Shown piece after piece: positions 11,334 through 26,159 of a DNA stretch of 64,000 bases. This DNA comes from a virus (lineage: Duplodnaviria > Heunggongvirae > Uroviricota > Caudoviricetes). The DNA lies in IMG/VR virus record IMGVR_UViG_3300028888_000044, positions 323,539 to 387,538 of that record. One strand, written 5' to 3'. The notes beneath the pieces are model-generated. The model saw only the letters and a program-made list of their open reading frames with translations, was not told the DNA's origin and did not search any database. Every line of letters starts with the position of its first letter. The stretch's first letter is position 1. Both the position numbers and the translations under genes were made by a program.

Positions 11334-11352
11334 ATCTTTGTTGATGGATATA

Positions 11353-11370
11353 GGTACTTAATTAAGTACC
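11353..11370. repeat. palindrome GGTACTTAATTAAGTACC (copy 3)
   Basis: Exact match, 20 nt upstream of ATG 11333. Confidence 0.9.
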
Positions 11371-11538
11371 CTTATATTATTTTTAATATTTTTTTTGAAA
11401 ATACAATAAACCAACATAAATATATAAAAAAAAATTGATAATGTCAATTATCAAATATTAAAAAATATTAAAAAAAAAAGATGAAGGTCGTTTAAACCTC
11501 CATCTTTAACTTATAACCTGATATATAATATCTTTTTG

Positions 11539-11787
11539 TTATTTGAACTTGCTTTTAAGATATTCCAACCAACGTTTGTTTACATCAGCCCAGAAATCTT
11601 TGCCTTGAACTGTTTTCTTGAGGAATAAGGGGTAGATACAGAACTTCTTTGGGTCTTGAATCATCAATTGGAATTTTGCCTTATCATAGGTCTTCCACTG
11701 TGCAAGCATTTCATGCTTAAAAACTGGGTATATCTTTGTACGATATAACCAGTTAATAAAGAGCTTTACGTATTCGAACTGTGACAT
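11539..11787 (-). CDS. hypothetical protein
   Basis: ORF 82 aa. Confidence 0.45.
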   Translation of the reverse strand: MSQFEYVKLFINWLYRTKIYPVFKHEMLAQWKTYDKAKFQLMIQDPKKFCIYPLFLKKTVQGKDFWADVNKRWLEYLKSKFK

Positions 11788-11791
11788 AAAC

Positions 11792-12037
11792 TTAATAACC
11801 GATTACAATACGAGCGTTAATGATTTCACAAACTGGCATATAGTACTTGCCTTTCACATCAACCAAATCCTTCTGTTTAATTTTGGCTTTGTCGAAAGGG
11901 AATACATTAGCCAAGACTTTCAACTGATTGTTGATTTTGGACTGAATGTAGTTTGGGCGATAATCTGATGGGTTGACAATGATAGCTTCTGGTACGAGCT
12001 GCTTAACGATTGAAATTACATCTAATTTTTTTGCCAT
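11792..12037 (-). CDS. hypothetical protein
   Basis: ORF 81 aa, MAKK start typical of this genome. Confidence 0.45.
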   Translation of the reverse strand: MAKKLDVISIVKQLVPEAIIVNPSDYRPNYIQSKINNQLKVLANVFPFDKAKIKQKDLVDVKGKYYMPVCEIINARIVIGY

Positions 12038-12216
12038 AATAGTAAAACAAGTATTAAAAGTTGATATTTCTCATTTTTCGTAATGCAAAATTAATACATT
12101 TTTCTGTAAAAAGCAAGTTTTACAAATTAATTAACCATTTCTTAACTGAATATATAAAAAATGTTAACACAATAAAAAAAGTTGGTAAAAAATTTGGAGA
12201 TGTCATAAAAAAGCAT

Positions 12217-12240
12217 TAACTTTGCAGCGAGGGAAATAGA
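12217..12240 (+). promoter_or_regulatory. conserved box TTAACTTTGCAGCGAGGGAAATAG (copy a)
   Basis: TAacTTTG -7 motif fused to the reiterated GCAGCGAGGGAAA box. Confidence 0.5.
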
Positions 12241-12382
12241 TGGTCTTGCTTGGATACACAGTTTTATTTGGATGAATTTATGGTGTTATAACCCAATCAA
12301 AATAATAGGAATCATTTTGATTTCCCATATATTTTATATATAATAGACATAGTTATTAACACTTTAATTATTTCTATTATAT

Positions 12383-12547
12383 TATGCTATTCGAAGTAAC
12401 TGAAAATATTGTAGCTACAACTACAGTCACTGTAGAAGCTGCAAATGAAGATGAAGCTTATGCAAAAGCTGACGAAATTGTTGCAAATATGGATATTTCA
12501 CAGTTTATGTTGGGTGCTAAATTGGAGGGAAATTTGCAGAGAATTTG
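12383..12547 (+). CDS. hypothetical small acidic protein
   Basis: 54-aa ORF followed by strong bidirectional hairpin terminator 12595..12632. Confidence 0.35.
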
Positions 12548-12594
12548 ATTAATAGATTTTGTTTATCATAATTCAAAATTTTATTTCGTTATTT

Positions 12595-12632
12595 TGGAGA
12601 GGTGTGTTTCACAACACATCTCTTTTTTTTTG
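12595..12632. terminator. bidirectional hairpin terminator
   Basis: gagaggtgtgtttcacaacacatctc + T-run. Confidence 0.55.
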
Positions 12633-12650
12633 TCATCAGATGACGCTGCA

Positions 12651-12672
12651 ATTCCCTCGCTGCAAAGATACG
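12651..12672 (-). promoter_or_regulatory. conserved box (copy g, minus orientation)
   Basis: revcomp reads TATCTTTGCAGCGAGGGAAT, followed on that strand by GTCATCTGATGAC hairpin and an A-run, as in copies d and e. Confidence 0.5.
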
Positions 12673-12779
12673 ACTTTTTTTTGAAAGTACCAAATATTTC
12701 TGGTACTTTAACATTTATTTAACACAATAAAAAAAGAGCACCACCTTTTGGGTGATGCCCTTTGCAGAATGTTCACGTG

Positions 12780-13094
12780 TTAGCTGAACGTGGTGAATGG
12801 AACGAAGTCCGTGCCGTTATCGTACTTAATCGTGCAGTACTTCTCGCTGAAATGGAGACGTACACCGAAGCGCTGAAGAAGAGCGTTCACGCGGCTGCGT
12901 GTGGTCTGTGAGAAGCGGCAAGGATGATTCTCCATATCGGTAATGGTCACATAATCGCGTGTCGCGTTGGCGATGTGGACACCGTGGAGGTAAACCTTGG
13001 ATACACCGTTGCGTGTGATAACTTGCGTATTGCTCTTGAAGAAGTTACGGCCATTCATAATGGCTTTGTTCATTTCTTTTTCAATCTGTCTCAT
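12780..13094 (-). CDS. hypothetical protein (GC-richer island)
   Basis: ORF 104 aa; local GC clearly above window average. Confidence 0.45.
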   Translation of the reverse strand: MRQIEKEMNKAIMNGRNFFKSNTQVITRNGVSKVYLHGVHIANATRDYVTITDMENHPCRFSQTTRSRVNALLQRFGVRLHFSEKYCTIKYDNGTDFVPFTTFS

Positions 13095-13112
13095 AATAGT
13101 TGTTTGTTAAAG

Positions 13113-13283
13113 ATTAATAATCGTTACCCTCACCGTCAGTTACACCGCATACATTGTAGCATTCCATTGCATCGGTCATACCGATAAGAAGATTTTTTGT
13201 CTCGGATACTGCGTCTTCAAGTGACACGTCAGAACCGAAGTCCACGCGAACTGTGGCATAAAGTACAATTGGCTTTCCCATAT
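13113..13283 (-). CDS. hypothetical small protein
   Basis: 56-aa ORF MGKPIVLYAT... not in track (<60 aa), packed between neighbours. Confidence 0.3.
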
Positions 13284-13477
13284 TATTCCTCTAAAAGATT
13301 GGTGATTTCTTCGTCAATACTTGCCAAAAGATTGGCTGCGTCAAGAAGTCTGTCCAAAATGTCGGTATTGACCTCTCTACACTGTGCTTTGCGCTTCAAA
13401 GCAATAATTCGAAAGCGAAGGTCGATAGCTTCCTCTCTCGTCTTAATCAAGCCATCCAATTCAAGTTTTTCGTCCAT
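13283..13477 (-). CDS. hypothetical protein
   Basis: ORF 64 aa; minus -7 box CAAAgaTA at 13508..13515, 31 nt upstream. Confidence 0.45.
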   Translation of the reverse strand: MDEKLELDGLIKTREEAIDLRFRIIALKRKAQCREVNTDILDRLLDAANLLASIDEEITNLLEE

Positions 13478-13628
13478 AATAGTTACTGTTTTATTGTTTT
13501 TGATGGTGCAAAGATAGGGTATTTTGAGCTAATATGCAAGAAAATATTAATCTTTAACAAAACTTTAACTGATGTGTTAAATTAATGTTAAATAACCAGA
13601 AAAAGTTGCAAATACCAAATAAAAGTCG

Positions 13629-13636
13629 TATATTTG
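13629..13636 (+). promoter_or_regulatory. -7 box TAtaTTTG
   Basis: 42 nt upstream of ATG 13678; TGTTAAATTAATGTTAAAT direct repeat at 13575..13593 upstream. Confidence 0.5.
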
Positions 13637-13677
13637 CACCATCAAAATTAAACAATACATTAAAAAATATAAGAACT

Positions 13678-13992
13678 ATGACAGTAGCAGAACCCAATTT
13701 TCACAAGTTATCTGACGAATACGAAAAGCTTATCCGCAAATTTTTCAAGGTAAACAACATCAAGGAAGTTGTTTGCACCGACAAGAAAGAGCACTTCTTT
13801 GACCGTATTGAAGTAAAGAAAAACGGTACAATTACTGTGTATGCACACGGTTTGACCAAGACAACGTGGAAGAAGTTGTATTTTGATTTTACAGTTGATT
13901 ATGCTGTATGTCTTGCCAATATGGAGCACGATTTGTTCTTGCAGCAACGCCAAGGCAAACACGAGAAGTTTAACTTTTATTTTTACAATTGA
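13678..13992 (+). CDS. hypothetical protein
   Basis: ORF starting MTVAEPNF (track ORF 13585 start overlaps the promoter). Confidence 0.5.
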   Translation: MTVAEPNFHKLSDEYEKLIRKFFKVNNIKEVVCTDKKEHFFDRIEVKKNGTITVYAHGLTKTTWKKLYFDFTVDYAVCLANMEHDLFLQQRQGKHEKFNFYFYN

Positions 13993-14522
13993 TTATGAGT
14001 AAGAAGTTTTATGTCATCTTTGGTGACGGTGAATGTGAACGCGCAATAACCCCTCTTTGCGACACTGAAGACGAGGCTGTGGCAAAAGCCTATAGAGCCT
14101 CAACGAAGGTGCTCATTGCAAACAAGAAGGAGTTTTGCAAGAAGCTTCGCGAAGAAGGATTCGCCACTGATGCTCACGACAATGAGTACTATTTGTTTGG
14201 CGCTGACGTTCATTTCATCCCAAACGTATACTACGTTTCTGAAGTGGATAAGGACAACGTTCAAGAGTCCATAGCAGCTCAATTCCCAATTCAGATTGCA
14301 TCCAATAGAGAGACGAAGTTTGTTGTTTGCAGTTATGACAAGGACCATAACATCAACATCAAGTCTTTGCTTTTCGACACAGTGCAAGAATGCTTGGCAG
14401 ACTTCGTGCATTCACACTATATGGTGGTCATTCCATCACTCATTGAGGATATGGTTGGAGAGTGGCGCACAGTCTTTAACAACAAAGTGTACTTCATTGT
14501 TCAGCTCAATATCTACGCCTAA
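13989..14522 (+). CDS. hypothetical protein
   Basis: ORF 177 aa, 4-nt overlap with previous gene. Confidence 0.5.
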   Translation: MIMSKKFYVIFGDGECERAITPLCDTEDEAVAKAYRASTKVLIANKKEFCKKLREEGFATDAHDNEYYLFGADVHFIPNVYYVSEVDKDNVQESIAAQFPIQIASNRETKFVVCSYDKDHNINIKSLLFDTVQECLADFVHSHYMVVIPSLIEDMVGEWRTVFNNKVYFIVQLNIYA

Positions 14523-14754
14523 TAAGAAGTTACACATTGTAGTCCCTAAAGCTTTGGTGAAGCTTGATAATCTGCAAGTCCGTATGGCTTCAGATTATCC
14601 CTACGACAACAAACCTACCTATGACGAAGCTCGCCAAGAGATTATCAAAATCCTTGAAATGTTTGAAGATGTTAGCTACAATTAGCTAACATTTTTTTTA
14701 TGTGTTAAATAAATGTTAAACCGTCAAAAATATTTGGCGGTTTCAATAAAAAGC

Positions 14755-14780
14755 CTTATCTTTGCAGCGAGGGAAATATG
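14755..14780 (+). promoter_or_regulatory. conserved box TTATCTTTGCAGCGAGGGAAATATGC (copy b)
   Basis: Reiterated box followed by hairpin ccatcctatc..gataggatgg. Confidence 0.5.
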
Positions 14781-14840
14781 CATATATAAAAAAAAACCAT
14801 CCTATCGTGTTGATAGGATGGAAAACTATGAAAAAAGAAA

Positions 14841-15404
14841 CTACTTTTGTATAAGGAACCTCGGAATGTTGCAACCAACGAAGTTACCCAATACAATTAA
14901 AGGATAATACTTAAAAGCATATAGCTGAATCAGATAATGTTCGGCAGAGAACATATAATAAGCATCAGCAATACTGTGATACATTCCACTCAAGATGAAT
15001 GCAGCTACACCGAAAACTACTAACAGTTTGTTGCCTTGCCTACCACTATTGACGATTAACGTCATAATCAGACCACAACCAATACCCTTAAGGAAGTTAT
15101 CAAATTGACCATCAACTATTCGGTCATCAATGATATTGCTTGCCATATCGTGCTCTCCTATAACAAAAGCAACCAATGCACAACCACCGATATTCAAGAG
15201 CAGTATGCCAAGTAGCTGTAGCCATTCCTTTGGCTGTTTATAATTGAAGAATCCAGCTTGCCCAGTGTATAAAGGAAGTTTATATTCAATCACAGCAAGC
15301 AATCCAAAGGAGAAAAGTACGCTACCATACACTTGCCCAACGTTCAGATATACCGCTCCACCAAGGGCAATAAGAACACCCGATAGGATAGAAGACTTAA
15401 TCAT
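14841..15404 (-). CDS. integral membrane protein (about 6 predicted TM helices)
   Basis: Highly hydrophobic 187-aa ORF; could be a small-substrate transporter component, family not identifiable by eye. Confidence 0.5.
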   Translation of the reverse strand: MIKSSILSGVLIALGGAVYLNVGQVYGSVLFSFGLLAVIEYKLPLYTGQAGFFNYKQPKEWLQLLGILLLNIGGCALVAFVIGEHDMASNIIDDRIVDGQFDNFLKGIGCGLIMTLIVNSGRQGNKLLVVFGVAAFILSGMYHSIADAYYMFSAEHYLIQLYAFKYYPLIVLGNFVGCNIPRFLIQK

Positions 15405-15742
15405 ATCTTTTCAAGTTTAACGTATGAGTGTACGATATTAGGTACTGTGATTTCGTCTTCGTCATTCAAGCCATTGAACTCACGAATAGACTGTGCCATT
15501 GTGTCACAGTTGCTAACAAAATCAAGTGTTGGGTATTTAATCACAAACTCACTTCCCTTATAGTTAGGGCAATAGCCAAAGCCATCATATAGCTGAAAAG
15601 TCATTGTATGAGGCTTGTTGTCATTGAAGATATTGTTTGAAGCCTCGTCATTGAACTGAAACGTCTGAATGCAAATTAGTTTGCCATACAGTTTCTCTAA
15701 AATTTCTTTTGAAATAGGATTTTTTACTTTAGTCATATACAA
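15401..15742 (-). CDS. hypothetical protein
   Basis: ORF 113 aa, 4-nt overlap with downstream gene. Confidence 0.5.
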   Translation of the reverse strand: MYMTKVKNPISKEILEKLYGKLICIQTFQFNDEASNNIFNDNKPHTMTFQLYDGFGYCPNYKGSEFVIKYPTLDFVSNCDTMAQSIREFNGLNDEDEITVPNIVHSYVKLEKI

Positions 15743-15816
15743 TATAAAATTAAAATTTCATATCGTAATTATATATTCAAAATATGAATTACGGTATGAA
15801 ATTTTATTAAATAATG

Positions 15817-16245
15817 TTAATTCTTCTTCTGCTTGTCTTTCTTGGAAGCTTTAACCAATGTAGTACCATCACACGTAACACTAATGTGAAACTTCGAAAT
15901 ACCATTGATTTCAGCAGCCTTCATCTTGAACCATTTGCCGTGGTCTACTGGTAGATGCCTATCTGGGCAACTTGGGTCTGGTGTTTGGTTTGTCCACAGA
16001 TGAATCATCTCGTGGATAAGGACTTCCAAGGCAGTTTGCTCTTCCAATTGATAATAATCAGTCATCCTAATAACATCAATGCTGAACTCATTTCCGTGAG
16101 GGGACAAGTCAATGCATTGTTGAAATTCTCCCAAATGAGTCTTCTTGTGTTCAATCTCAAAAACTGGTTCTTTTAATTTATTCTCAAAGAATCTCTTGTT
16201 GAAGATAGGGAAGTACTTCTTCATAAACTCAATAGTTGGAATCAT
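15817..16245 (-). CDS. SprT-like zinc metalloprotease
   Basis: HEMIH (HExxH) with downstream C..D.H..DH residues. Confidence 0.5.
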   Translation of the reverse strand: MIPTIEFMKKYFPIFNKRFFENKLKEPVFEIEHKKTHLGEFQQCIDLSPHGNEFSIDVIRMTDYYQLEEQTALEVLIHEMIHLWTNQTPDPSCPDRHLPVDHGKWFKMKAAEINGISKFHISVTCDGTTLVKASKKDKQKKN

Positions 16246-16260
16246 ATTACTGTGTGGTTT

Positions 16261-18132
16261 TTATATTAAACTTGTGTCCTTATGCTGTTGATACATTGAC
16301 TTCTGACTTGGTACGACCTTGAAAGCACCTACCATAGTGTGATACACGAGAAGTCTCATATTGCCGCCAATGCACGTGCCACTGTTCTTGTCAATCTCGG
16401 CATCCAAAACGAGAGAGACGCACGAGAGTCCGAAGTCATCAGTTGTGAGATAGTCACGATTCTTCTCAAGTTGGAATTGCTTGAGCTTGTCAGCTCTGAA
16501 GCCAAACACGAGACTGTCACTTGTGAAACTGTCAAAACGCTTTACTTGGGAAGACACTGCATAATTGTTCTTACCTTGCATGTGCGCCTCATTGAAGTAG
16601 TCATAGCTACAGTCAATGTTTTTATCCTTAAGCATCTTATCAAAGATAATCTTTGCATTCTCTGAACACGACTTGCGTCCCTTGCAACGACTGAAGAAGA
16701 ACTCTACCTCTTCCTTGGTCAAGTCTATAGCGAAGTTACCACAAGGTGCTGAAGCAAGAACCGATGTCGCATCCAATTCGTTTGCACTGCAAACCCATTC
16801 CTTCTCTGTCTTGTCAGTTGGAACATTCTCCCTATCAGCAAAGTTTTGCTCATACTGACTGTACTGTGTGGCGTGGAACTTGTTGACGAAGAACATCGTA
16901 TTCAGTCTTTTGTGCTCAGACCTATATCCACACATACGACCAAGCAAGGCTTGTGCAGTTGCAGCAGCAGACAAGCTGTAGTCATACACTAAGTATGTAT
17001 AGTCCTTGAAGTTGCCGTGAATAGTTACACCAGCTCTGAACGCACCCTTGATTAATACGAGAAGTGGCTTGATAGGTATCTTTTGTTCCAAGAGAATCGG
17101 AAGTGTCACACCTTCGAACTTCTTGTTGAACTCAATGGCATCTATTTGTTCCTTGAGCCTATCAGAAAGCTTGTCATAGTTGAGCTTGCTTGTTGAGGCA
17201 TCCATTTGATAGACATCAAAATTATACTTCACGAAGTTACGCTCTACCAATTCCTCATTTTTGCGTGTACGCACGAAGAAGATACCGTCAATGCCATCAG
17301 ACTTGCAACGAGTCAAGCCCTCACGAAGGGCAAGCAGAATGTCTCCAACGTCCTCACAGTGTGACTTTGCATCGTGGACGAGTCCTTCATTGATGTACTC
17401 GCTGACTCCAACGTAACCACTGTTTGTTGGAAGCTCGATAATCTCCTTGCACTCATTGACATCAGATATTACCTCGCTGAAAGGCGTGGCAGATACTGAA
17501 ACAATATAAATGTTACGCGAAATAAGCTCGTTTGGATTTCTCCAATTGATGCCTTGCTTCTCCAAGAACTGTGTGAGCTTATTCTTCTTGCCGCTACCGT
17601 AATGACATTCGTCAATGAAAAGAATGGAATTGTCAATAGAGCCATCAAAGCCCATCAAGTCACTGTTCTTTAGAAGGAAGTACTTCTTCGGTGTCTTGTA
17701 CTTGAGGGAGCGCTTGCCATTGTAGGTGTTCTCTACAGTTGCATCGCTGACTTGCTTGATGACACGCTCGAACGTTTGCTCCTTGAGACCACAGTCGTTC
17801 ATTCCACAAAGGAAGAAGAACTTGTTTACCATCATAGGTTTATCCAAGTGCAATGCATTGACGATATTGACAACAGCATTAACCGCTCCAGTTTTTCCAC
17901 TTTGCATCTTTGCAATGAGAATAACGTGGTTGCGTCTTGTCTCTGCTCTATTGAAAGCCAAAAGAATGTTCTTTGCGCATTCAATTTGGGTGTCGTGGAT
18001 ATAACCATCGCACCCAATAGAGCCACTTCTGAATAAATTGTTATTAGATGATGTAATAAGATTTGTAATTACTTCTGTTTGAGTAAGAGTTTCTGTCATA
18101 GTTATTTGAATATTTTTGCAAAAATACGCCAA
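16261..18132 (-). CDS. SF2 DEAD/DEAH-box helicase-like protein
   Basis: Walker A AKMQSGKTG, DExH box FIDECH, motif III SVSATP, motif VI-like QALLGRMCGYR. Confidence 0.6.
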   Translation of the reverse strand: MAYFCKNIQITMTETLTQTEVITNLITSSNNNLFRSGSIGCDGYIHDTQIECAKNILLAFNRAETRRNHVILIAKMQSGKTGAVNAVVNIVNALHLDKPMMVNKFFFLCGMNDCGLKEQTFERVIKQVSDATVENTYNGKRSLKYKTPKKYFLLKNSDLMGFDGSIDNSILFIDECHYGSGKKNKLTQFLEKQGINWRNPNELISRNIYIVSVSATPFSEVISDVNECKEIIELPTNSGYVGVSEYINEGLVHDAKSHCEDVGDILLALREGLTRCKSDGIDGIFFVRTRKNEELVERNFVKYNFDVYQMDASTSKLNYDKLSDRLKEQIDAIEFNKKFEGVTLPILLEQKIPIKPLLVLIKGAFRAGVTIHGNFKDYTYLVYDYSLSAAATAQALLGRMCGYRSEHKRLNTMFFVNKFHATQYSQYEQNFADRENVPTDKTEKEWVCSANELDATSVLASAPCGNFAIDLTKEEVEFFFSRCKGRKSCSENAKIIFDKMLKDKNIDCSYDYFNEAHMQGKNNYAVSSQVKRFDSFTSDSLVFGFRADKLKQFQLEKNRDYLTTDDFGLSCVSLVLDAEIDKNSGTCIGGNMRLLVYHTMVGAFKVVPSQKSMYQQHKDTSLI

Positions 18133-18174
18133 AAATCTGTAAAAAGCAAAAATTCAAATACATTTAACTTGAAT

Positions 18175-18417
18175 TTAACATATTTCATAAAATTTCTTAA
18201 TACTGTCCATTATACTGAATAACTCCAAATTTGACAATGCTGTCAGCTTATAGACATAACCAAGAGGGAATTGAACCTTGCCAATTCCATCCTCGATAAA
18301 GACATTAATATCAGTTGTCCCGTAATTAACATAAACGTTTGGAATTGAAAGACGATATTGTTCCTCTTCCTTTCCATATCTTCGCATCAGCTTATGTATT
18401 CCCAATAATAGATTCAT
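18175..18417 (-). CDS. hypothetical protein
   Basis: ORF 80 aa; palindrome copy 4 lies 26 nt upstream. Confidence 0.45.
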   Translation of the reverse strand: MNLLLGIHKLMRRYGKEEEQYRLSIPNVYVNYGTTDINVFIEDGIGKVQFPLGYVYKLTALSNLELFSIMDSIKKFYEIC

Positions 18418-18442
18418 ATTATATAGTATTATATGTATATAA

Positions 18443-18460
18443 GGTACTTAATTAAGTACC
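18443..18460. repeat. palindrome GGTACTTAATTAAGTACC (copy 4)
   Basis: Exact match. Confidence 0.9.
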
Positions 18461-18562
18461 CTAATCATAATGAGCAAAAGCACCAGCTTTCACAAGCTAA
18501 TGCTTTTTATTACCCCATAAAAAAAAAAGGAGATGATATTATGGAGGTATGAAAAAAAGTGT

Positions 18563-18651
18563 TGGTAGAGATGGATTTGAACCACCGAAGCCTCATAAGA
18601 GGCGGCTGTGCCACTAAACACAGCCCCATTTGACCGCTTTGGTATCTACCG
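18563..18651 (-). tRNA. type-II tRNA-like gene, atypical anticodon loop (tRNA-like 1)
   Basis: revcomp cggtaga-ta-cca-aagcggtcaaa-tgg...gcctcttatgaggc(long variable arm)-ggtgg-ttcaaat-ccatc-tctacca-a. It has U8, a 3-bp D stem, GG in the D loop and a 5-bp T arm with TTCAAAT loop. The 1:72 pair is C:A. The anticodon region ctgtg-tttagtgg-cacag gives an 8-nt loop containing TAG. Confidence 0.5.
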
Positions 18652-18653
18652 AA

Positions 18654-18745
18654 TGGTTGATAGAGAGGGATTCGAACCCCCGAAGCCTCCGAAGAGGCGG
18701 TTGAGCTACTAACACAACCCCATTTGACCGCTTTGGTATCTATCG
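18654..18745 (-). tRNA. type-II tRNA-like gene with encoded CCA (tRNA-like 2)
   Basis: About 80% identical to tRNA-like 1; cgataga...ggggg-ttcgaat-ccctc-tctatca-a-cca. The anticodon stem has a T:T mismatch and a loop ttagtag. Confidence 0.5.
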
Positions 18746-18838
18746 GGTAATTAAACCATCATTGTGTCTTAATTACAATACGATTATATACACAAAAGCA
18801 GTCAAACAGAAATGTTTTTTGTTAATAAATGTTAAGAT

Positions 18839-19381
18839 TTACTTCAAATACAAGTTCTCCAAACGGTTGTTGAACTTATTACCATCTTTATGGAAAAGAC
18901 GCTGGCCTTCTATTGGACCATTGAATGTTTCATAGACAAGATAACAAGCTGTAAGCTGCACTTGCCCCCAAATACAGTGGCTCAAGCGAACTATAGGATT
19001 CTTGTGGTACTTGTTTGCAGTCTGCTTCAAAACATGCTTGGTATATTTGTTGCGGATACGACCAAGGTTTGAAGCCTCATAGTTAGTAAATGGATAATCC
19101 ATTGTCCTCCAAAACTCAATTTCAACCACGTCATAGTTGCTCACAAGCCATCCATATTCATCAGAAAGATAGTTGTTGATGGCATCATAATCGTCAGCTT
19201 CAATGTAATTTGGAAGCTCTACCTCGGTTGGAAGGGTGATGTCTTCACCATCAGTCTCCCATACAATGTTAATAGCTTTATATTTACAATCCATAGTGAT
19301 ATTGTTTTTTAACGCTGCAAAGATAGGTAATAATCGGCAATGCTGCAACTTTTTTGACACCATTAACAAAACTTTAACCAA
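18839..19381 (-). CDS. HNH homing endonuclease (free-standing)
   Basis: C-terminal HKDGNKFNNRLENLYL HNH motif; immediately upstream of the tRNA-like pair. Confidence 0.55.
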   Translation of the reverse strand: MVKVLLMVSKKLQHCRLLPIFAALKNNITMDCKYKAINIVWETDGEDITLPTEVELPNYIEADDYDAINNYLSDEYGWLVSNYDVVEIEFWRTMDYPFTNYEASNLGRIRNKYTKHVLKQTANKYHKNPIVRLSHCIWGQVQLTACYLVYETFNGPIEGQRLFHKDGNKFNNRLENLYLK

Positions 19382-19435
19382 TATGTTAAATTAATGTTAA
19401 AGTACCAGAAATATTTGGAATTGTCGTGAAAAAGC

Positions 19436-19467
19436 TCTATCTTTGCAGCGAGGGAAATAGCGTACAG
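19436..19467 (+). promoter_or_regulatory. conserved box CTATCTTTGCAGCGAGGGAAATAGCGTACAGC (copy c)
   Basis: Exact reiteration; preceded by TGTTAAATTAATGTTAAAG at 19383..19402. Confidence 0.5.
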
Positions 19468-19525
19468 CAAAAAAAATGGCATCATCTCATTTCGAGATAA
19501 TGCCATTCCTTAATGATGTCAGAAC

Positions 19526-19663
19526 TTATGATACTTGAGCTTGACAATCTACGCCTTCCCAATCACACCACAAACAGTGATAGTGAATATGACCATCGTC
19601 ATAGTTATAACCGTCCGATTCAAGCTTTTCCCCACAAATTGGGCAATAACGTACTTCTTCCAT
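19526..19663 (-). CDS. small zinc-ribbon protein
   Basis: MEEVRYCPICGEKL...HCLWCDW, two CxxC pairs; boundaries approximate. Confidence 0.35.
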   Translation of the reverse strand: MEEVRYCPICGEKLESDGYNYDDGHIHYHCLWCDWEGVDCQAQVS

Positions 19664-19675
19664 AGCTTTAATTGT

Positions 19676-19996
19676 TTACTTTTCAACATGCTCTTGCTGA
19701 ATTTCACCACAGCACAACATAATGTCTCCGTAGGTGATGTCTCTTGGCTGTAACTCGTCCAAACCACGATAGCAAAGAACTTCCTCTGCAAGCTTCTTAT
19801 GCCTTACCACATACTCACGTTTTGGATACGTTATAAAGATGCGCTGTGGGGCTGTAGTATCCTCTTTGTCAGCCAACTTGCCAATTGCGAACCCATTGAA
19901 GCACTCTACGTCATAACAGTGCTCCTTATCGTCTTTGAAGAACTTCTTGTCATAAAAGACAATTTCGTCTTCGAAAATCACGTTTTTTCTTGCCAT
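19676..19996 (-). CDS. hypothetical protein
   Basis: ORF 106 aa, MARK start. Confidence 0.5.
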   Translation of the reverse strand: MARKNVIFEDEIVFYDKKFFKDDKEHCYDVECFNGFAIGKLADKEDTTAPQRIFITYPKREYVVRHKKLAEEVLCYRGLDELQPRDITYGDIMLCCGEIQQEHVEK

Positions 19997-20280
19997 AGTT
20001 TACTTGAATTTGGTTATTAGCTCAATTCTCACCGTTAGTCATAAACACTTCAATAAGCTTGGGAATAAAGCCACAAAAGGCTACAATACCGAAAAATACG
20101 AATGGATGCATCATAATAGTATTGGTTTTTATTGTTAGTACTTGTTTTTGTTTCACTGTGCAAATATAGTGCTTTTAATTGACACTGCAAACAAAAACAG
20201 TAAGTTTAACAAAAGTTTAACTGTATTGTTAAAAAATGTAAAATGGCACTTACTTGCCACTGTAAGTGCCATCGAGTCAA

Positions 20281-20853
20281 TCAAGCTCTCTTGCCTTTTG
20301 AAGTGTTGTGGGCTTGTGTGCCATACTCCTTCCAACCGAAGGTTGCAGCTACGAAAGGACGAATGCTCTTGGTGCGCTTGAAGAACTTCTCTTCGGTGTC
20401 GATAACTCCATTGACAATATCATTCACGATTCTCTCTGCCTCATCGTATGTATCAACATAACGATAGACAACATAGTTCCATCCATCGTGGTGAGCGCCT
20501 TCAGCACGAACATTGTACTTGTCTGCATAGAAGCAAACATCGTCACAACCGATACTTGTGGTGAGCACTTTATTGACGTTAGTACCAATAATCTTGGTTC
20601 CAATTCTGCGACCACACCAAAAGCCCGAATTTGCATAGGCTATAATATAACCAACCCCTTCAATATCGAGGTTTTTGACTTCATCGTCAAACCCATTCAA
20701 AATGCATTGATAGACCCTTTCATCGTCAATATCCTCAACGTCACAGTCATTGCACTCTGCAAGCATTTCGCGTGTTTCCTCAATAACCTTCTCGTCATAA
20801 CAGTCAAAACTGCTGAAAATAGTGAGCTTCACTTTCTTAATGTTCTTTGCCAT
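20281..20853 (-). CDS. hypothetical protein
   Basis: Start moved to internal MAKNIKK (20853), since the minus -7 box CAAAgaTA at 20900..20907 lies inside the longer track ORF. Confidence 0.5.
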   Translation of the reverse strand: MAKNIKKVKLTIFSSFDCYDEKVIEETREMLAECNDCDVEDIDDERVYQCILNGFDDEVKNLDIEGVGYIIAYANSGFWCGRRIGTKIIGTNVNKVLTTSIGCDDVCFYADKYNVRAEGAHHDGWNYVVYRYVDTYDEAERIVNDIVNGVIDTEEKFFKRTKSIRPFVAATFGWKEYGTQAHNTSKGKRA

Positions 20854-21016
20854 AGTTTTATTTGTTTTTAATGTTAGTAATTGTTTTAATTTCACGGTGC
20901 AAAGATAGTGAAAAAATCAATACGCCACAACTTTTTTGACACCATTAACAAAACTTTAACCAATATGTTAAATTAGTGTTAAAGTACCAGAAATATTTGG
21001 AATTGTCACCAAAAAA

Positions 21017-21050
21017 CACTATCTTTGCAGCGAGGGAAAGAGCGTACAGC
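21017..21050 (+). promoter_or_regulatory. conserved box CACTATCTTTGCAGCGAGGGAAAGAGCGTACAGC (copy d)
   Basis: Exact reiteration; 20966..20984 TGTTAAATTAGTGTTAAAG lies upstream; GTCATCAGATGGCAC + A-run lies downstream. Confidence 0.5.
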
Positions 21051-21189
21051 AACTTGTCATCAGATGGCACAAAAAAAAGGACACCCGACAGTAGTCGGAT
21101 GCCCTCCCAAACAAATCTTACTAACCTTAAAAACACGTTGTAGCTCAGATGGGACTCGAACCCATACGGTCGAATGACCAAGGGATTTT

Positions 21190-21970
21190 CTTACTACTCT
21201 TGCTTTGATACAAGCCAACTTCGTGAGTTGTTGTAGTCTGGACTATTTCTTCACCATGCCAATTTGGTTTAGGTGTTTCGTATATAGTCTCTACGCCATT
21301 TAGGATAAATATCCATTTAGTAAGCCATCGCCAAAGTTTATGTCACCATAAACAAGGTTTCTGTTTGTTAGCGAAATTCTACTTCCCAATATTTTTTATT
21401 TATTGTTTTTTCCTTTCGGAAAGGAAGCACTCTTAATGTTTAGACCTCGATAATTATCTGTTTGTGCGTGGCAATTAGGGCATAAAATTTCAAGATTCTC
21501 TAATCTATCATCGGTTGTTATTCCATTTTTATGGTGTAACTCCAATGGTATTTTTTTACCCATCCATTTTGTAAGCCCACAACATTCACATTTTTCTTCT
21601 TTAATTTGTTCTCTAAAAAGCCTATTTTTTAATTTATAAGAACTATAATGAGAATTCTCAACTAATAATTCATCGGTTTTTATTTGGCGTTTAGGATTAA
21701 ATTTTAAACCTATATTCCAACCTTTACCCGTAAAATGTGAAATATCAATTTCATACTTTTCAATAATTTTATGAAGAGTATTATAATTCCCACCACAAGG
21801 TTTTAAATTAAAAAACCTAAGCATTTCAGCAATACTATGTGAACATTTTGCTGCTTCTACATATTCTTCTTTCGTTCTTTCTTTTCTCATATCATATTAC
21901 TTTAATAATAAATAGTACGATATGAGAAAAAGTAATCACGAAATTATGACTATATTTTGGTCTTTACCAA
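21190..21970 (-). mobile_element. group I intron (781 nt) carrying an HNH ORF
   Basis: Inserted between U34 and A35 of the Leu anticodon. The 5' exon ends in U and the intron ends in G. P7 R/S-like elements GCGTAGAGACTATATACG and AAATAGTCCAGACTAC lie in the 3' 200 nt. Confidence 0.65.
21396..21890 (-). CDS. intron-encoded HNH homing endonuclease
   Basis: LELHHKNGITTDDRLENLEILCPNCH HNH motif plus CECCG zinc knuckle. Confidence 0.75.
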   Translation of the reverse strand: MRKERTKEEYVEAAKCSHSIAEMLRFFNLKPCGGNYNTLHKIIEKYEIDISHFTGKGWNIGLKFNPKRQIKTDELLVENSHYSSYKLKNRLFREQIKEEKCECCGLTKWMGKKIPLELHHKNGITTDDRLENLEILCPNCHAQTDNYRGLNIKSASFPKGKNNK

Positions 21971-22050
21971 AAGTCCCTCGCGTCTACCAATTCCGCCACT
22001 GAGCCATCATTTTTGCTATTATATAAAATAAATATAACAAACAAAAAAAA

Positions 22051-22233
22051 TTAAGCTCTTAAGGCTTCAAGTTTTTGCTCTATTGCCTTTGGTGTGATAG
22101 CTTCACCGCCACCGAAGTAAACTGTGCCGTAATAGGTGTCATCGAAAGAGTCATAGACTTCATAACGGCCATTGCCGATAAAGCTCAAGTCCACTTCTCC
22201 ATAACCTTTAACGTAATATGATGTCTTCTTCAT
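22051..22233 (-). CDS. hypothetical small protein
   Basis: ORF; start chosen at MKKTSYYVKG. Confidence 0.4.
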   Translation of the reverse strand: MKKTSYYVKGYGEVDLSFIGNGRYEVYDSFDDTYYGTVYFGGGEAITPKAIEQKLEALRA

Positions 22234-22300
22234 TGTTGTAAGTTTCAAATTAAAAGGGGTGCTTGCTTTTCTTCGGAAGCACCCCAACAGTGAAAATTAG

Positions 22301-22849
22301 TTAGCTTGCAGCTACAGTCACGACTTCAGATGCTACAGTGGGAGTTGAGTCTGCAATTGCCTCGGAAACCATAGCAACGAGCTTCTTCACATCAATGCTC
22401 TTGTCCTTGGCATTGTAAGCCGTGAGTGGAAGAGCATCCACAGCAGACTTGAAAAGTTCAAAGTCAGTGGTGACAGTGTTGTAGATGCTGTAAGCTGCGT
22501 GGTACACGCGGTCGCTTGGGTGCGCGTATCCGAAGTGTGCTCCGAAGTACTTGGCGAACTCTACGATAGCCTTGGCGGTTTCTGCGTTCCACTTCGTATG
22601 AGCTGCGACAAAGCCGCTCAACTTGTATGCGGAAGACGTACAACCTACATAGGTGAGACACGTCATTGGAACACTCATTTCGTCAGCTATCTTGATAGCC
22701 TCCTTGCAGACCTTCTTGAGAAGACCGTACTGACGAAGGTTCAACGAAGGTGCTACAGCCATAACGCGAATGGCATCATTGAGGTTCTTCTTTGCGAAGT
22801 CAGCACCAAGAATTGCACACAGATTCTCTAAAATAATTTTCTTTGCCAT
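22301..22849 (-). CDS. hypothetical Ala-rich protein
   Basis: ORF 182 aa, MAKK start. Confidence 0.5.
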   Translation of the reverse strand: MAKKIILENLCAILGADFAKKNLNDAIRVMAVAPSLNLRQYGLLKKVCKEAIKIADEMSVPMTCLTYVGCTSSAYKLSGFVAAHTKWNAETAKAIVEFAKYFGAHFGYAHPSDRVYHAAYSIYNTVTTDFELFKSAVDALPLTAYNAKDKSIDVKKLVAMVSEAIADSTPTVASEVVTVAAS

Positions 22850-22884
22850 AGTGGTAATTTGTTTTTTAATGTTAGTAAAATTGG

Positions 22885-23160
22885 TTAAAGTAAATTGTTC
22901 TCTTTGAGCAACGATTCTAAATCGGAAGTCTCAAAGACATAAGCATAGTCTTCCAACTCTCTATCGTAGCCGACATTGTGGTCAAGAACAGTGTCTGCGT
23001 CAAGCTCTCCAACTTCAGTGTCATCTACCTTTACGGTGAACTTCTCGTCAGTGAAAGGATTTTCACTATCTGCATCGAACGAGTAGGTCAAGCTAACCTT
23101 GCGTCCGTCAGCCGTATCAAAATTGATAGGCGCTAATAAAGTTTCTACAAAAAGTCTCAT
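22885..23160 (-). CDS. hypothetical acidic protein
   Basis: ORF 91 aa; minus -7 box CAAAgaTA at 23189..23196. Confidence 0.5.
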   Translation of the reverse strand: MRLFVETLLAPINFDTADGRKVSLTYSFDADSENPFTDEKFTVKVDDTEVGELDADTVLDHNVGYDRELEDYAYVFETSDLESLLKENNLL

Positions 23161-23822
23161 AATCGTGTTGTTTATTAATTTTTACACCGCAAAGATACAG
23201 GAGATTTTTGGATTTTCCAAGAAATTTTACGTCTTTAACATTATTTTAACATTTCAGTTAACAAATGTTACTGTACGATACCTAACACCCAAGAAGCCTT
23301 AAAGTACTTCAAAGCTTGGGTCGGTGTCATTGGCTTTGGTGTTTTTTCCATTGTAGGCTGTGAAGCAAGAAGCCCACGTTTGCCTCTATAGCACACCTTC
23401 CAATTTGTGAACCTTTCGGTTATTGTTACGATTTCTTTGTCCATAGTTTTATATGTTTTTTAATTTTTACGGTGCAAAGATAGTGAAAATATCAATACCC
23501 TCAAAGAAATTTCAGTTATTTAACCAGTTTTTAACATATTTGTTAATTGAATTTAACAAAAAAAAATGGACACAGTTTCACAACTATATCCATTTTATCT
23601 TTTTACCTTGTGCCACTTTCACAAGCTCGTCACACGGTAACACATCTTTCATCTTATCGAGTGTTGTGTTTTATTACACTTTTTTCATTAATTTTGCTTT
23701 TCAGTTGATAAAAATACTCGATAAAAAATCCTTTGCCATCACTCTTTCCTCTAATATAAATATATACAATTTTTTATTAAAATCAAAACTTTTTCATATT
23801 TTTTTTAATTTTTTTTTGTTTA

Positions 23823-24062
23823 TTAAATATACTCCAATACCTCACAGTAGATTCTTTCCCTCTCTTCGTCAGTCAAGACAAGCTCTTCACAGTTCTCGTC
23901 TTCGAAAGGATTACCGCACCATACACCTATTTTACCATCCTCGTTCACTACGAGACAGTCCACACGAGCACCATTGTGACGAATGTCGAAGTCACTTACA
24001 ATGATGCAGTTGTCTTCATATTCTTCAAAAAGGTTGCAAATACAAGTTTCAACACTTCCCAT
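23823..24062 (-). CDS. hypothetical acidic Cys-containing protein
   Basis: ORF 79 aa. Confidence 0.45.
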   Translation of the reverse strand: MGSVETCICNLFEEYEDNCIIVSDFDIRHNGARVDCLVVNEDGKIGVWCGNPFEDENCEELVLTDEERERIYCEVLEYI

Positions 24063-24251
24063 AACGTTACTGTTTTCTTTTTTGATGTTAATACTTTATA
24101 GTGTTGCCACACACCATCATTTACGCACTGTTTGGCAAGCTCTTCAGCTTCTTCCTTTGTTTTGAACTTCGTTGGGCTAATACACACACCTTGCTTGGTC
24201 AAAGCAATCAAGAACCATTTTTCATTTGAATTGTTATTAGTTGTTGCCATA
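23996..24251 (-). CDS. hypothetical protein
   Basis: ORF starting MATTNNNSNEKW; minus -7 box near 24272..24285. Confidence 0.45.
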
Positions 24252-24391
24252 CATCTTTGTTTTTTTTCGTGGTGCAAAGTTATGAAATTAATAGCATATC
24301 AGCAAGAAATAATACTGTATTAACAAATTTTTAACAGTATAGTTAAATCCAAGTTAAAGTGCTTAAAATATTTTGTACTCTCACTGAAAAG

Positions 24392-24426
24392 CACTATCTT
24401 TGCAGCGAGGGAAAGAGCGTACAGCT
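24392..24426 (+). promoter_or_regulatory. conserved box CACTATCTTTGCAGCGAGGGAAAGAGCGTACAGC (copy e)
   Basis: Exact reiteration followed by TTGTCATCAAAAGGCAC + A-run and a hairpin that serves as minus-strand terminator for tRNA-Gln. Confidence 0.5.
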
Positions 24427-24512
24427 ACTTGTCATCAAAAGGCACAAAAAAAGCATCGAGCATAATGCCCGATGCAAAAACATTAAAAAACAATAACTAT
24501 TAACAAAGCTTG

Positions 24513-24585
24513 TTGTCCCTCCAAGACTCGAACTCGGACTTTCAGACTCAAATTCTGACGTGCTAACCGACTACACCAAGGGACA
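24513..24585 (-). tRNA. tRNA-Gln(UUG)
   Basis: revcomp tgtccct-tg-gtgt-agtcggtta-gcac-g-tcaga-atTTGag-tctga-aagt-ccgag-ttcgagt-cttgg-agggaca-a. Canonical cloverleaf with anticodon TTG, U33 and A37. Confidence 0.8.
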
Positions 24586-24599
24586 GTGTTGAATTGCTT

Positions 24600-25390
24600 T
24601 TATAAATATATAGAAAAATAAAATATAAAGCAAATAGAAAAGAAAAAAAAAGTGCCGATGGGAGCCAACGTGCCAAGGGACGTGCGATTGTGGGGACCTT
24701 TCTCATCTTCATAGGTCCGCACCGTGCAGTGCGTAGGGGCGATTGTTGTAGCTCTCATCGGCTTTTACCCAAGGGCCGACTGTGCGGCATAGTTATGCGG
24801 CATTAACTATCCTCACTCATTTATTTTGCCGCTAATAATGAGATTATTGGAACCTTGGTTTCAATGGGCATTCTCGTGGACTCGATGGCGTAGAAAGGCG
24901 CAAGTATCTGCTTGTCGGAGTGGCACAGTGACCGCGTAAAGCGTATTATAGTTTGTGCAGACTCGGAATAATGTCTCTCGTGGGAATCGCGCAAGCATAA
25001 ACGCGCGGTAAAATGAGACTTACGTAATGCGTTGTAGCACCTTGGATAGGATATAATCGCCTATCCACGAAAATGCCCGAAAATTTTATATTTCCTTTTA
25101 GCTTGAATACCGATTTCTATCTTGTCGATGTACATAACTTGTGCGCTTGTTGAGCTAATATTATACACGCAGTTTGTTCAATGCACCAAGTATAGAAGAA
25201 ATTAACAGTTTTAATTGGGCTGTCCCCTAATGTGCTGCCTCATAGCTGTAGGATTTACAAGTTACACATACCTTTAGATTCATTTCTCAATTAATAATTT
25301 TGATTTACCCTCAAAGGGGTCGGTCTCTTGCATTCATCGGTATGTCGGTCAGTTAAGTTGTTGATTATTACCCCACTGTTTGGTTGGGCT
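24600..25390. ncRNA. candidate large structured non-coding RNA (GC-rich ORF-free island)
   Basis: About 790 nt with no ORF over 60 aa on any frame and markedly higher GC than the flanks. It has many local hairpins, e.g. gccgactgtgcggc and ggataggatataatcgcctatcc, and sits between tRNA-Gln and a promoter-driven 41-aa ORF. Confidence 0.35.
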
Positions 25391-25391
25391 A

Positions 25392-25517
25392 TCACTTTGC
25401 CCAATAACTACCCTCTTTGGCGAAGATGCTGTAACGAATCTCGTCCTTACCAAACTTGTGCGGTACTGCGAAAACGCGCTTGCTTTCTACTGCTGAATTA
25501 AAACGTCCTTTTGCCAT
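25392..25517 (-). CDS. hypothetical 41-aa protein
   Basis: MAKGRFNSAVESKRVF...; minus -7 box CAAAgaTA about 40 nt upstream at about 25558..25565; coordinates within 2 nt. Confidence 0.35.
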   Translation of the reverse strand: MAKGRFNSAVESKRVFAVPHKFGKDEIRYSIFAKEGSYWAK

Positions 25518-25611
25518 AGTTGTTAGTTGTTTTTATTTGTTTTTATTAATTTTGACGATGCAAAGATAGGGCTTTTATCGTTACCTTGCAAGAAATTTTA
25601 GGTCTTTAACA

Positions 25612-25902
25612 TTATTTTAACACTTCGTGAACAATATTCAAACTTGTTACAACTAAATGAGTGTCATTTGTATTATAAGTGCGTTCACTATACGTGTACT
25701 CACAATACATAATGTCATTGCCATCTGAATTGGTTATCTTCACAACACACTTGTTTTCATTTGGGTCAATACTCTCAACAACGATTGACAGATTTTCACC
25801 CAAAACTTTTTTTAAGTTTGCCACTAAAGATTGTGGAAGATAGGAAATAACCATTCCCACACCAATTCCCAAACGATTGAAAATATCTTGTAATACTGTC
25901 AT
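25612..25902 (-). CDS. hypothetical protein
   Basis: ORF 96 aa. Confidence 0.5.
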   Translation of the reverse strand: MTVLQDIFNRLGIGVGMVISYLPQSLVANLKKVLGENLSIVVESIDPNENKCVVKITNSDGNDIMYCEYTYSERTYNTNDTHLVVTSLNIVHEVLK

Positions 25903-26159
25903 ACCTTATTTATTATTTATGCTTGCGAATAAATACATAAGATGTAAAAGAAGCTGAAGAACATTGGTCTTTCTTTTCCTCTTCAACAATTGGAGATATG
26001 TAATAAGCATTATCCATTATCTCAAGTTTTGTTCCGTTTGCCATAGTTGTTACTGTTTTTTAATTTAGTAACACAAAGATATAATAAATAATAATCAAAT
26101 CCAAGAAATAACTGTGAAAAAATATTAATGTGAATAGATTTTAACATAAGGTACTTATT

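Follow-up and report, generated by a model that had tools for sequence, protein, structure and literature searches.

Positions 323,539 to 387,538 of the IMG/VR record IMGVR_UViG_3300028888_000044 (64,000 nt of phage DNA, henceforth called the window; all coordinates count from window position 1) carry two tandem, class II tRNA-like genes on the minus strand, which are real, structured and non-canonical. Copy A (18654..18745 (-), 92 nt) is a class II gene derived from tRNA-Tyr, and copy B (18561..18651 (-), 91 nt) is its paralogue, starting 2 nt downstream of the CCA of copy A. Compared with cellular and phage tRNA genes, both copies are descendants of tRNA-Tyr(GUA) and not of tRNA-Leu; comparison with related phages indicates that their stems and tyrosine identity nucleotides are retained, and their decoding features are lost. 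The pair is tentatively read as non-decoding mimics of tRNA-Tyr or of tRNAs with a GUN anticodon, which would probably act as decoys for a putative host anticodon nuclease (probability of roughly 40%).

Structure and descent of the pair

Both copies were called by ARAGORN, recovered with the Rfam tRNA model RF00005, and read directly from the sequence. ARAGORN labelled copy A as "Thr agt" and copy B as "??? tagt", i.e., with a four-base anticodon, and besides the pair called only a tRNA-Gln(UUG) gene (24512-24585) in the window. Scores of 32.1 and 32.4 bits (E about 5e-5), above the RF00005 gathering score of 29 bits, were reached in a sensitive search of a 400-nt region only; the whole-window search at the gathering threshold missed the pair, and no Rfam family other than tRNA matched its region. 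The z-scores of the minimum free energy (MFE) were -2.3 and -5.6.

By direct reading, copy A is segmented as CGATAGA-TA-CCA-AAGCGGTCAAA-TGG-G-GTTGT-GTTAGTAGC-TCAAC-C-GCCTC-TTCG-GAGGC-TTC-GGGGG-TTCGAAT-CCCTC-TCTATCA-A-CCA, and copy B as CGGTAGA-TA-CCA-AAGCGGTCAAA-TGG-G-GCTGT-GTTTAGTGGC-ACAGC-C-GCCTC-TTAT-GAGGC-TTC-GGTGG-TTCAAAT-CCATC-TCTACCA-A. Both therefore have a 7-bp acceptor stem (CGATAGA/TCTATCA in copy A, CGGTAGA/TCTACCA in copy B) with C1xA72, A73 and U8, a 3-bp D stem (CCA/TGG) closing the loop AAGCGGTCAAA, a 5-bp hairpin as variable arm, and a T arm (GGGGG-TTCGAAT-CCCTC and GGTGG-TTCAAAT-CCATC, respectively). Together with G18G19 of the D loop, T54-Psi55-C56 of the T loop and U8/A14, these features make up the cloverleaf of a tRNA. 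The tandem minus-strand arrangement with most of these hallmarks had been described in an earlier note on this DNA, and so had the C1:A72 mismatch of both copies and the CCA encoded by only one of them, which is the upstream copy A; direct reading confirmed each of these points. The high similarity of the copies was likewise borne out, the figure of about 80% given there being replaced by 85% identity (79/93 columns).

The register of the anticodon arms was set by homology with canonical relatives, counting G26 and then the anticodon stem 27-31/39-43. In copy A, the stem is GTTGT/TCAAC with a U31.U39 mismatch, and the loop GTTAGTAGC comprises 9 nt, or 7 nt (TTAGTAG) if counted within a G32-C38 pair, and includes GUA. 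In copy B, the stem is GCTGT/ACAGC, and the loop GTTTAGTGGC comprises 10 nt, or 8 nt (TTTAGTGG) within the G32-C38 pair, with GUG where GUA is expected. Aligned to the canonical CU-GUA-AA, the loops read G-UUA-GUA-GC and G-UUUA-GUG-GC, i.e., relative to the parent loop copy A carries two additional nucleotides (GU-[UA]-GUA-GC) and copy B three (GU-[UUA]-GUG-GC). Neither copy has a standard anticodon arm, defined by a stem of 5 bp and a loop of 7 nt in which the anticodon directly follows U33 and position 37 is a purine, and MFE folds close both arms, that of copy B being shut to 9 bp with a UAGU tetraloop. The earlier claim of non-standard arms was thus upheld, its 7-nt and 8-nt loops being the remainder inside the G32-C38 pair and not the homologous register. 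Covariance models did not restore a standard arm, as the note had conceded they might: Infernal leaves the anticodon arm of both copies as an unaligned local insertion of 7-11 nt.

Several identities suggested by the loops were discarded. The tRNA-Thr(AGU) label from ARAGORN is a register artefact, and the Thr identity elements (G1-C72, C2-G71) are absent. The proposed relation to Leu(UAG) failed on two counts: UAG comes into anticodon position only by counting from the 5' side of the loop, with U37 as the result, and the body is that of a tRNA-Tyr. Recoding of stop codons was rejected, as the window has a normal cover of open reading frames (ORFs) in the standard code and CUA, UCA or UUA cannot be placed behind a U33 in any loop register unless the stem is opened. 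T-box targeting was dismissed since the GUG and GUU variants could not pair with a UAC specifier, and TGT targeting since this requires U33-G34-U35, which is kept only by the relatives L268 and L358 (see below) and lost in the window copies.

The descent of the pair was traced primarily through its D arm. Searching IMG/VR for CCARAGYGGTYAAATGGGG returned mainly tRNA-Tyr(GTA) genes with the loop CTGTAAA, and tRNA-Leu in a single contig (L002); in bacterial genomes (one per species) the CTGTAAA loop was present in 109/121 matches. A first guess of tRNA-Leu identity, based on L002, was overturned by this census, in which the D arm is found in Leu genes there and in Tyr genes elsewhere. The canonical sequences closest to copy B were phage tRNA-Tyr genes (L019, L020, L026) and a tRNA-Tyr of a Prevotella metagenome-assembled genome (MAG). 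With a hidden Markov model (HMM) of the family, the family itself ranked first, and those of the next-best matches that were checked were canonical tRNA-Tyr (L019/L020/L026, L016, L128).

Both copies share with bacterial and phage tRNA-Tyr(GUA) the D arm TACCARAGYGGTCAAATGGGG, G26, the T arm, A73 and G34-U35, as well as the long class II variable arm followed by TTC and all tertiary-contact nucleotides. They differ from it in the anticodon loop, where the canonical CUGUAAA is replaced by loops of 9 and 10 nt with two or three bases between U33 and G34, in positions 32/38, which are Watson-Crick complementary in the pair, in G37 instead of A37, in G36 of copy B, and in 1:72, which is CxA instead of G-C or U-A. 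On this comparison, tRNA-Tyr(GUA) is clearly the evolutionary parent. An elongator tRNA-Tyr would carry GUA at 34-36 of a 7-nt loop and a paired 1:72; instead, the GUA of copy A is shifted by the 2-nt insertion, copy B has GUG after a 3-nt insertion, and C1xA72 recurs in all three genomes in which this pair was found.

Conservation in related phages

Close relatives with the same pair are the 120-kb contig behind L001, L003 and L005, and the contig L004. The pair is 98.9% identical to that of L001, versus about 95% for the surrounding block. The few substitutions in these relatives lie in stems, where pairing is kept (U4-A69 to G.U, G30-C40 to A-U, C28-G42 to U.G, and G50.U64 to A-U), and the remaining changes are confined to the variable loop; the D, anticodon and T loops are unchanged among the three near-identical genomes. 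Across the six sequences (both copies from three genomes), 94% of the cells were paired and 5 pairs had changed on both sides, while all slid controls collapsed and C1xA72 was unpaired in 6/6. Compensatory changes, between paralogues and between the three near-identical genomes, occurred at 3:70, 4:69, 28:42, 30:40 and 51:63.

More distant relatives were reached through the neighbouring helicase gene (16261-18132), which has many homologues. Related tRNA-like genes occupy the equivalent site, upstream of both the helicase and a conserved 80-aa ORF, in phages with 58-70% helicase identity. L194 (helicase 58%) has two copies with the loop CCGUAAA and AxA and U-A at 1:72; L191 (70%) has two copies with the loop UGGUUAA and CxA and AxA; and L268, L269 and L358 (68-69%) have one copy each, with the loop CCUUGUAAA and CxA. 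Together with the window lineage (two copies, loops GUUAGUAGC and GUUUAGUGGC, both CxA), the clade sample comprised 12 genes with five loop types.

Within this sample, seven acceptor, six anticodon-stem and six T-stem sequences were distinguished, and complementarity was kept at six of the seven acceptor pairs and at all D, anticodon and T stem pairs, with the exception of U31.U39 in copy A. The D arm, G26, the TTC before the T stem, A72, A73 and G34-U35 were invariant, and 1:72 was mismatched (CxA or AxA) in 11/12 genes. Variation affected the base preceding G34, which is C, G, U or A and accompanied by insertions of 0-3 nt, as well as base 36 (A, G or U), base 37 and loop length. The anticodon loop is consequently the least conserved part of the family, and no member has a canonical seven-base loop with U33 directly 5' of G34. 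These patterns indicate that the pair and its relatives in the clade are under structural selection. The conservation expected by the earlier note applies to the element and not to its anticodon loop; the check it proposed with tRNA-finding programs, carried out with ARAGORN and Infernal, recovered both genes, and related phages share the element, in one or two copies, with covarying stems.

The element is not universal at this locus. In L195 the gene is absent and the locus empty, and the stretch upstream of the helicase yielded no copy in L270, L271 and L359-L361, several of these being short contigs that extend little in this direction. L192 contains one hybrid gene (L192:5382-5465), in which the 5' acceptor strand of copy 1 is combined with the 3' acceptor strand of copy 2, adding two acceptor mismatches; either a deletion by recombination or a collapse in the assembly produced it. 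L267 carries a degenerate copy (L267:310-407) with a 20-nt anticodon loop and a broken acceptor stem, beside a run of N. As a side observation, the genes L268:3461-3551 and L358:548-638 have the T loop UCCGAAU, with C at the near-universal U55, and three nucleotides, not two, between acceptor and D stems.

Searches beyond the clade added few relatives. With the family HMM, neither the window nor any other scanned locus gave an additional copy, and a 500-nt region had no DNA match among GenBank phages. Loop patterns, both exact and loose, matched nothing in IMG/VR and the JGI metagenomes beyond the same phage (L001/L005), the 2.7-kb contig L004, chance matches, and the L009 gene described below. 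A 1-3 nt insertion before GTR on this D arm was found only in L001 and L021 among 46 matches, the others being coding sequence. Of 87 stretches matching the variable-arm pattern, which were not inspected one by one, none besides the known L001 locus passed the T-arm filters. The IMG/VR helicase-profile scan yielded, beyond the clade, only huge phages (44-47% identity) without a tRNA gene near the helicase. Literature searches did not find such phage tRNAs described.

Three unrelated huge-phage contigs (385 kb, 635 kb and 59 kb, respectively) encode tRNA-Tyr-like genes with 8-nt loops of the form N-U-N-GUA-A-N, i.e., with one base inserted before G34: L021:8410-8495, L010:2994-3081 and L009:3827-3908 (-). 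Positions 32/38 are complementary in these genes and G1-C72 is normal. In the genes of L009, which ARAGORN missed, and L010, an A bulges from the T stem and the surrounding pairs covary; no relative of the L010 gene was found among the GenBank phages, Lak phages included. The inserted base in these three genes suggests recurrent pressure on the U33-G34 context of tRNA-Tyr.

Possible functions

Decoding tRNAs conserve the anticodon loop above all, and a mismatch at 1:72 is an anti-determinant for EF-Tu, as in bacterial initiator tRNA. Since A73, G34 and U35, which make up the bacterial tyrosine identity set according to a review table, are invariant across the family and the decoding positions vary, this set has been preserved, on a class II body, and decoding features have been lost. 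His identity is missing from copy B (no G-1, no C73), and Asn identity from L191 with its GUU (no G73). The RNA would thus have remained recognisable to some protein as tRNA-Tyr, or in a looser sense as one of the tRNAs with a G-U-N anticodon, and would no longer be fit for the ribosome.

The scheme that we infer for the pair, from expression, processing and charging through exclusion from EF-Tu to the existence of a nuclease and decoy action on it, would run as follows. The two genes would probably be transcribed as a short unit, from a TATATAAT motif through copy A and copy B to a hairpin, and the transcript trimmed to tRNA size by RNase P and 3' processing enzymes. Selection maintains the L-shaped body and the nucleotides that would mark it as Tyr for a protein reader (A73, G34-U35 and the long variable arm), and the features needed by the ribosome and EF-Tu (a paired 1:72, U33 directly 5' of 34, a 7-nt loop and a fixed third anticodon base) have been given up. 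Most likely the RNAs would then serve as decoys or competitive inhibitors and not as elongator tRNAs: a putative host nuclease directed at the anticodon of tRNA-Tyr or GUN tRNAs would bind them but cleave them inefficiently, since the base preceding G-U is either a purine or displaced. Miscoding by GUG or GUU on a Tyr body would be avoided, as the 1:72 mismatch would exclude the RNAs from translation. Of the functions named in the earlier note, decoys for host tRNA-targeting nucleases are the one that the comparative data tentatively favour.

A model for such a nuclease is colicin E5, which cuts the tRNAs of Tyr, His, Asn and Asp between G/Q34 and U35 and needs Y-G-U-N with any base at 36; in Tyr minihelices, changing U33 to A or G nearly abolishes cleavage. 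The corresponding contexts are A-G-U-A and A-G-U-G in the window copies and G-G-U-U in L191, and a colicin E5-like specificity would allow the drift of the third anticodon base seen in the family. This argument takes an E. coli toxin as its model; as to the host of the phage, rumen-type sample names and the Prevotella MAG tRNA-Tyr as closest cellular gene are hints only. Among phages, T5 answers the depletion of tRNA-Tyr by retron-Eco7 PtuAB with its own tRNA-Tyr, and anticodon-loop changes in phage tRNAs have been proposed to evade nucleases. The genes of the clade resemble such nuclease-evading tRNAs in being homologues of a targeted tRNA with the loop changed at nuclease-read sites, the context 5' of G34 being altered in every member.

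Several points weigh against decoy action. In L194 (C33) and L268 (U before G), the base 5' of G-U is still a pyrimidine, which would leave them E5-sensitive by the YGUN rule, and the near-canonical form in L194 may still decode. According to the review table, G1-C72 has some identity role for bacterial TyrRS, so the 1:72 mismatch may also weaken recognition by a Tyr-specific reader. A decoy replaces none of the depleted tRNA-Tyr, so that its inhibition of the nuclease would have to be efficient. Some relatives can do without the element (absent in L195, degenerate in L267), and relaxed constraint, rather than an arms race, could be partly behind the variability of the loop.

Next in plausibility, though itself unlikely, is the alternative that the genes are nuclease-resistant tRNAs which still decode, the loop changes blocking the nuclease and a 3'-stacked G-U-A reading UAY, so that they would supply replacement tRNA-Tyr as in T5. 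Phages attacked by retron-Eco7 are indeed rescued by a supply of phage tRNA-Tyr, and evasion by loop mutations has been proposed. L194 is canonical but for C33, one of its copies having U1-A72, and the loop of L268 ends in UUGUAAA, seven bases that correspond to a normal Tyr loop; triplet reading by an 8-nt loop is known from yeast mitochondrial tRNA-Thr1. No tRNA-Tyr with the family D arm was seen in the window or in the 120-kb relative, where a tRNA-Tyr with a different D arm may be encoded elsewhere. Decoding fits L194 and perhaps L268. For the window copies, however, it would have to operate with 9- and 10-nt loops, a G32-C38 pair, U31.U39 in copy A and arms that MFE folds shut; the GUG of copy B and the GUU of L191, sitting on bodies with Tyr and not His or Asn identity, would cause misincorporation, and the 1:72 mismatch in 11/12 genes would, as an EF-Tu anti-determinant, oppose delivery to the ribosome.

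If that mismatch excludes EF-Tu, the RNAs could be Tyr carriers outside translation or ligands of TyrRS, i.e., charged by TyrRS and then handing Tyr to a non-ribosomal enzyme of the phage or the host, or titrating TyrRS itself. The invariant positions are the bacterial Tyr identity set, the decoding features are gone with 1:72 mismatched as in initiator tRNA, and many neighbouring ORFs have no known family, all of which would suit such a role. We nevertheless regard it as improbable: no aminoacyl-tRNA-dependent transferase, cyclodipeptide synthase or similar was found among the ORFs scanned, we know of no Tyr-tRNA-dependent process in phages, G1-C72 contributes to bacterial Tyr identity, and the change specifically at the base 5' of G34 would be left unexplained.

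Decay of tRNA-Tyr genes would explain the loops by neutral insertion, or as scars of mobile elements, left by imprecise repair after cleavage by an adjacent HNH endonuclease or by changes conferring target-site immunity. An HNH/NUMOD4 gene lies directly upstream (18839-19381) and other mobile elements are nearby, including a tRNA-Leu intron bearing an HNH gene. The element can be lost, as seen from the degenerate L267 copy and the empty L195 locus; the L192 copy is a hybrid, and L270 and L271, short contigs with limited upstream sequence, showed none. Still, decay is quite unlikely for genes whose stems are held by compensatory change throughout the clade, whose tertiary-contact bases are all invariant, and which never lose G34-U35 and A73. 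The loops are also identical in three genomes despite stem changes, and the loop of L268/L358 has 9 nt, none of the genes upstream of it being recorded with an HNH family.

Expanded anticodons, a form of which the earlier note had proposed in taking an 8-nt loop as the hallmark of a +1 frameshift suppressor, would make the genes +1 suppressors, or tRNAs for codons of four or five bases (e.g., UACU(A)), acting at programmed positions within phage genes. The anticodon given by ARAGORN has four bases in copy B and L021, and the insertion in the megaphage genes amounts to exactly one base, at position 33.5, as in quadruplet decoders obtained by engineering. The proposal is very improbable for the pair itself, where the insertions are of +2 and +3 nt on a Tyr body whose third anticodon base drifts, where the 1:72 mismatch speaks against delivery by EF-Tu, and where loops differ between related lineages although the genes to be served are shared; ORF density in the standard code is normal and no domain-bearing gene looks split, frameshift sites not having been searched exhaustively. 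Least credible is a "pro-anticodon" loop from which a host nuclease would excise bases near the wobble position for the phage kinase and RNA ligases to reseal, attack thereby switching on phage tRNAs: removing UA from copy A and UUA from copy B would give normal 7-nt loops (GU-GUA-GC and GU-GUG-GC), removing the inserted base from L021, L010 and L009 a canonical seven-base N-U-GUA-A-N, and removing the inserted C and U likewise from L268, RloC-type wobble-excising tRNases exist, and the phage encodes repair enzymes, but the 7-nt loops of L191 and L194 have a substituted base 33 beyond repair by excision, and the 1:72 mismatch would persist.

Phage tRNAs are now viewed as weapons against tRNA-destroying defences, the known cases being working tRNAs with small loop changes. 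This clade differs in that all stems and the Tyr identity nucleotides are maintained by selection and the anticodon loop and first acceptor pair are rebuilt differently from lineage to lineage. If its members are decoys, they would be the first tRNA-shaped anti-defence RNAs and would point to an undiscovered nuclease of rumen bacteria specific for tRNA-Tyr or GUN anticodons. If they still decode, they would be natural tRNAs with 9- and 10-nt loops and U33 out of its normal place, which would matter for the tolerance of the ribosome towards anticodon-loop geometry and for the engineering of genetic codes. In both cases, the family offers a compact set of natural variants that can be tested.

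Genomic setting and comparison with known systems

The window (33.8% G+C) reads normally in the standard code and derives from a large tailed phage without a close relative among GenBank phages. The TATATAAT motif lies 37 nt upstream of copy A (18783..18790 (-)). Preceded by a T-rich stretch, it recurs upstream of coding-strand genes, including both tRNA loci (e.g., at 22025, 18790, 18425, 15775, 48351 and 35684 (-)), and it is kept in L001, L004 and L191, L268 having TATATCAT; the T-rich stretch with TATATAAT is a candidate promoter element. About 55 nt downstream of copy B, an 11-bp hairpin (AGCATTAGCTT-GTGA-AAGCTGGTGCT) is followed by TTTT (18479..18504 (-)). It was not flagged by the consensus scan, and direct reading showed it to be kept with compensatory changes in L001, L268/L358 and L191; it is a putative terminator or processing hairpin ending the two-gene unit.

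RNA ligase and kinase genes are the classic phage counter to anticodon nucleases. The window encodes an RNA-repair-like set of two RNA ligases, a kinase and two phosphoesterases (55957-58176 (-), 61596-62204 (+), 47568-48320 (-) and 43460-44521 (-)). The two genes of the RNA ligase family are adjacent but separate ORFs, a TAG stop being followed 6 nt on by ATG; the P-loop kinase matches the N-terminal kinase domain of bacterial Pnkp, and the two phosphoesterases are calcineurin-like (metallophosphoesterases).

The pair is part of a small region with tRNA genes, which extends to the tRNA-Gln at 24.5 kb. The gene directly upstream of the pair (18839-19381 (-)) is a free-standing homing-endonuclease gene with HNH_3 and NUMOD4 domains, which is also present in L001 and L004; for genes at that position in L191 and L268 no HNH family is on record. 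Further upstream, a tRNA-Leu(UAA) gene (22005..21141 (-)) contains a 781-nt intron (21190-21970), inserted between U34 and A35, in which an HNH endonuclease ORF is found (21396-21890). Its 5' exon ends in U and the intron in G, and the exons equal the uninterrupted tRNA-Leu of L268 (L268:1258-1342) save for two compensated D-stem bases; both ARAGORN and Rfam, the group I intron model included, missed the split gene. In the IMG/VR huge-phage contigs L017, L023 and L025, many Rfam tRNA matches are 110-180 nt long, which suggests intron-containing tRNA genes; the interruption of their tRNA-Tyr genes directly follows CTGTA(A) in L017 and L023, and lies where the anticodon loop begins in L025, and L023 encodes a tmRNA, too.

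Other genes in the window include a NAPRTase, a 2408-aa ORF and a prohead core protease (Peptidase_S77; 62763-63905 (+)), the N-terminal half of which has a weak match to an intein splicing domain and may thus contain another mobile element. Within a small minus-strand ORF, 80 bp (11179-11258) are 85% identical to nine Prevotella Lak megaphage genomes; with a 20-kb query (10000-30000) against GenBank phages, this unrelated Lak phage match was the sole nucleotide link.

Among known systems, bacterial initiator tRNA-fMet shares with the pair C1xA72, G2-C71, A73 and the acceptor end 5'-CG...CAACCA-3'; the pair, in contrast, is class II and has neither a CAU anticodon nor the three consecutive G-C pairs at 29-31/39-41 of an initiator. 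The frameshift suppressors sufD, sufJ and SufB2 and yeast mitochondrial tRNA-Thr1 resemble it in having an enlarged anticodon loop on a normal cloverleaf, and the 8-nt loop UUUUAGGU of tRNA-Thr1 bears a superficial resemblance to the inner loop of copy B, UUUAGUGG. In these tRNAs the loop is conserved and enlarged by a single base, and 1:72 is paired, whereas the pair has two or three extra bases, a mismatched 1:72 and loops that vary between lineages.

Phage RNA decoys include pseudo-ToxI repeats and CRISPR-repeat-like anti-CRISPR RNAs, and the logic proposed here is alike, a phage RNA imitating the natural RNA ligand or substrate of a host defence protein; to our knowledge, no tRNA-shaped decoy of this kind has been described. 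Similar in setting are the phage tRNAs deployed against tRNA-targeting defences, i.e., the tRNA-Tyr of T5 against retron-Eco7 PtuAB, the tRNA-Lys of T5 against PARIS, and mycobacteriophage tRNAs with altered anticodon loops. As with the pair, these are phage versions of an attacked tRNA species, changed mostly in the anticodon loop, with RNA-repair genes alongside. Unlike the pair, they are point-substituted or over-expressed and still decode; decoding by the pair is doubtful, because loop length, U33 context, base 36 and 1:72 are all altered. The pair would accordingly stand with the phage tRNAs shaped by conflict with tRNA-targeting defences, decoy action being the leading, if tentative, explanation.

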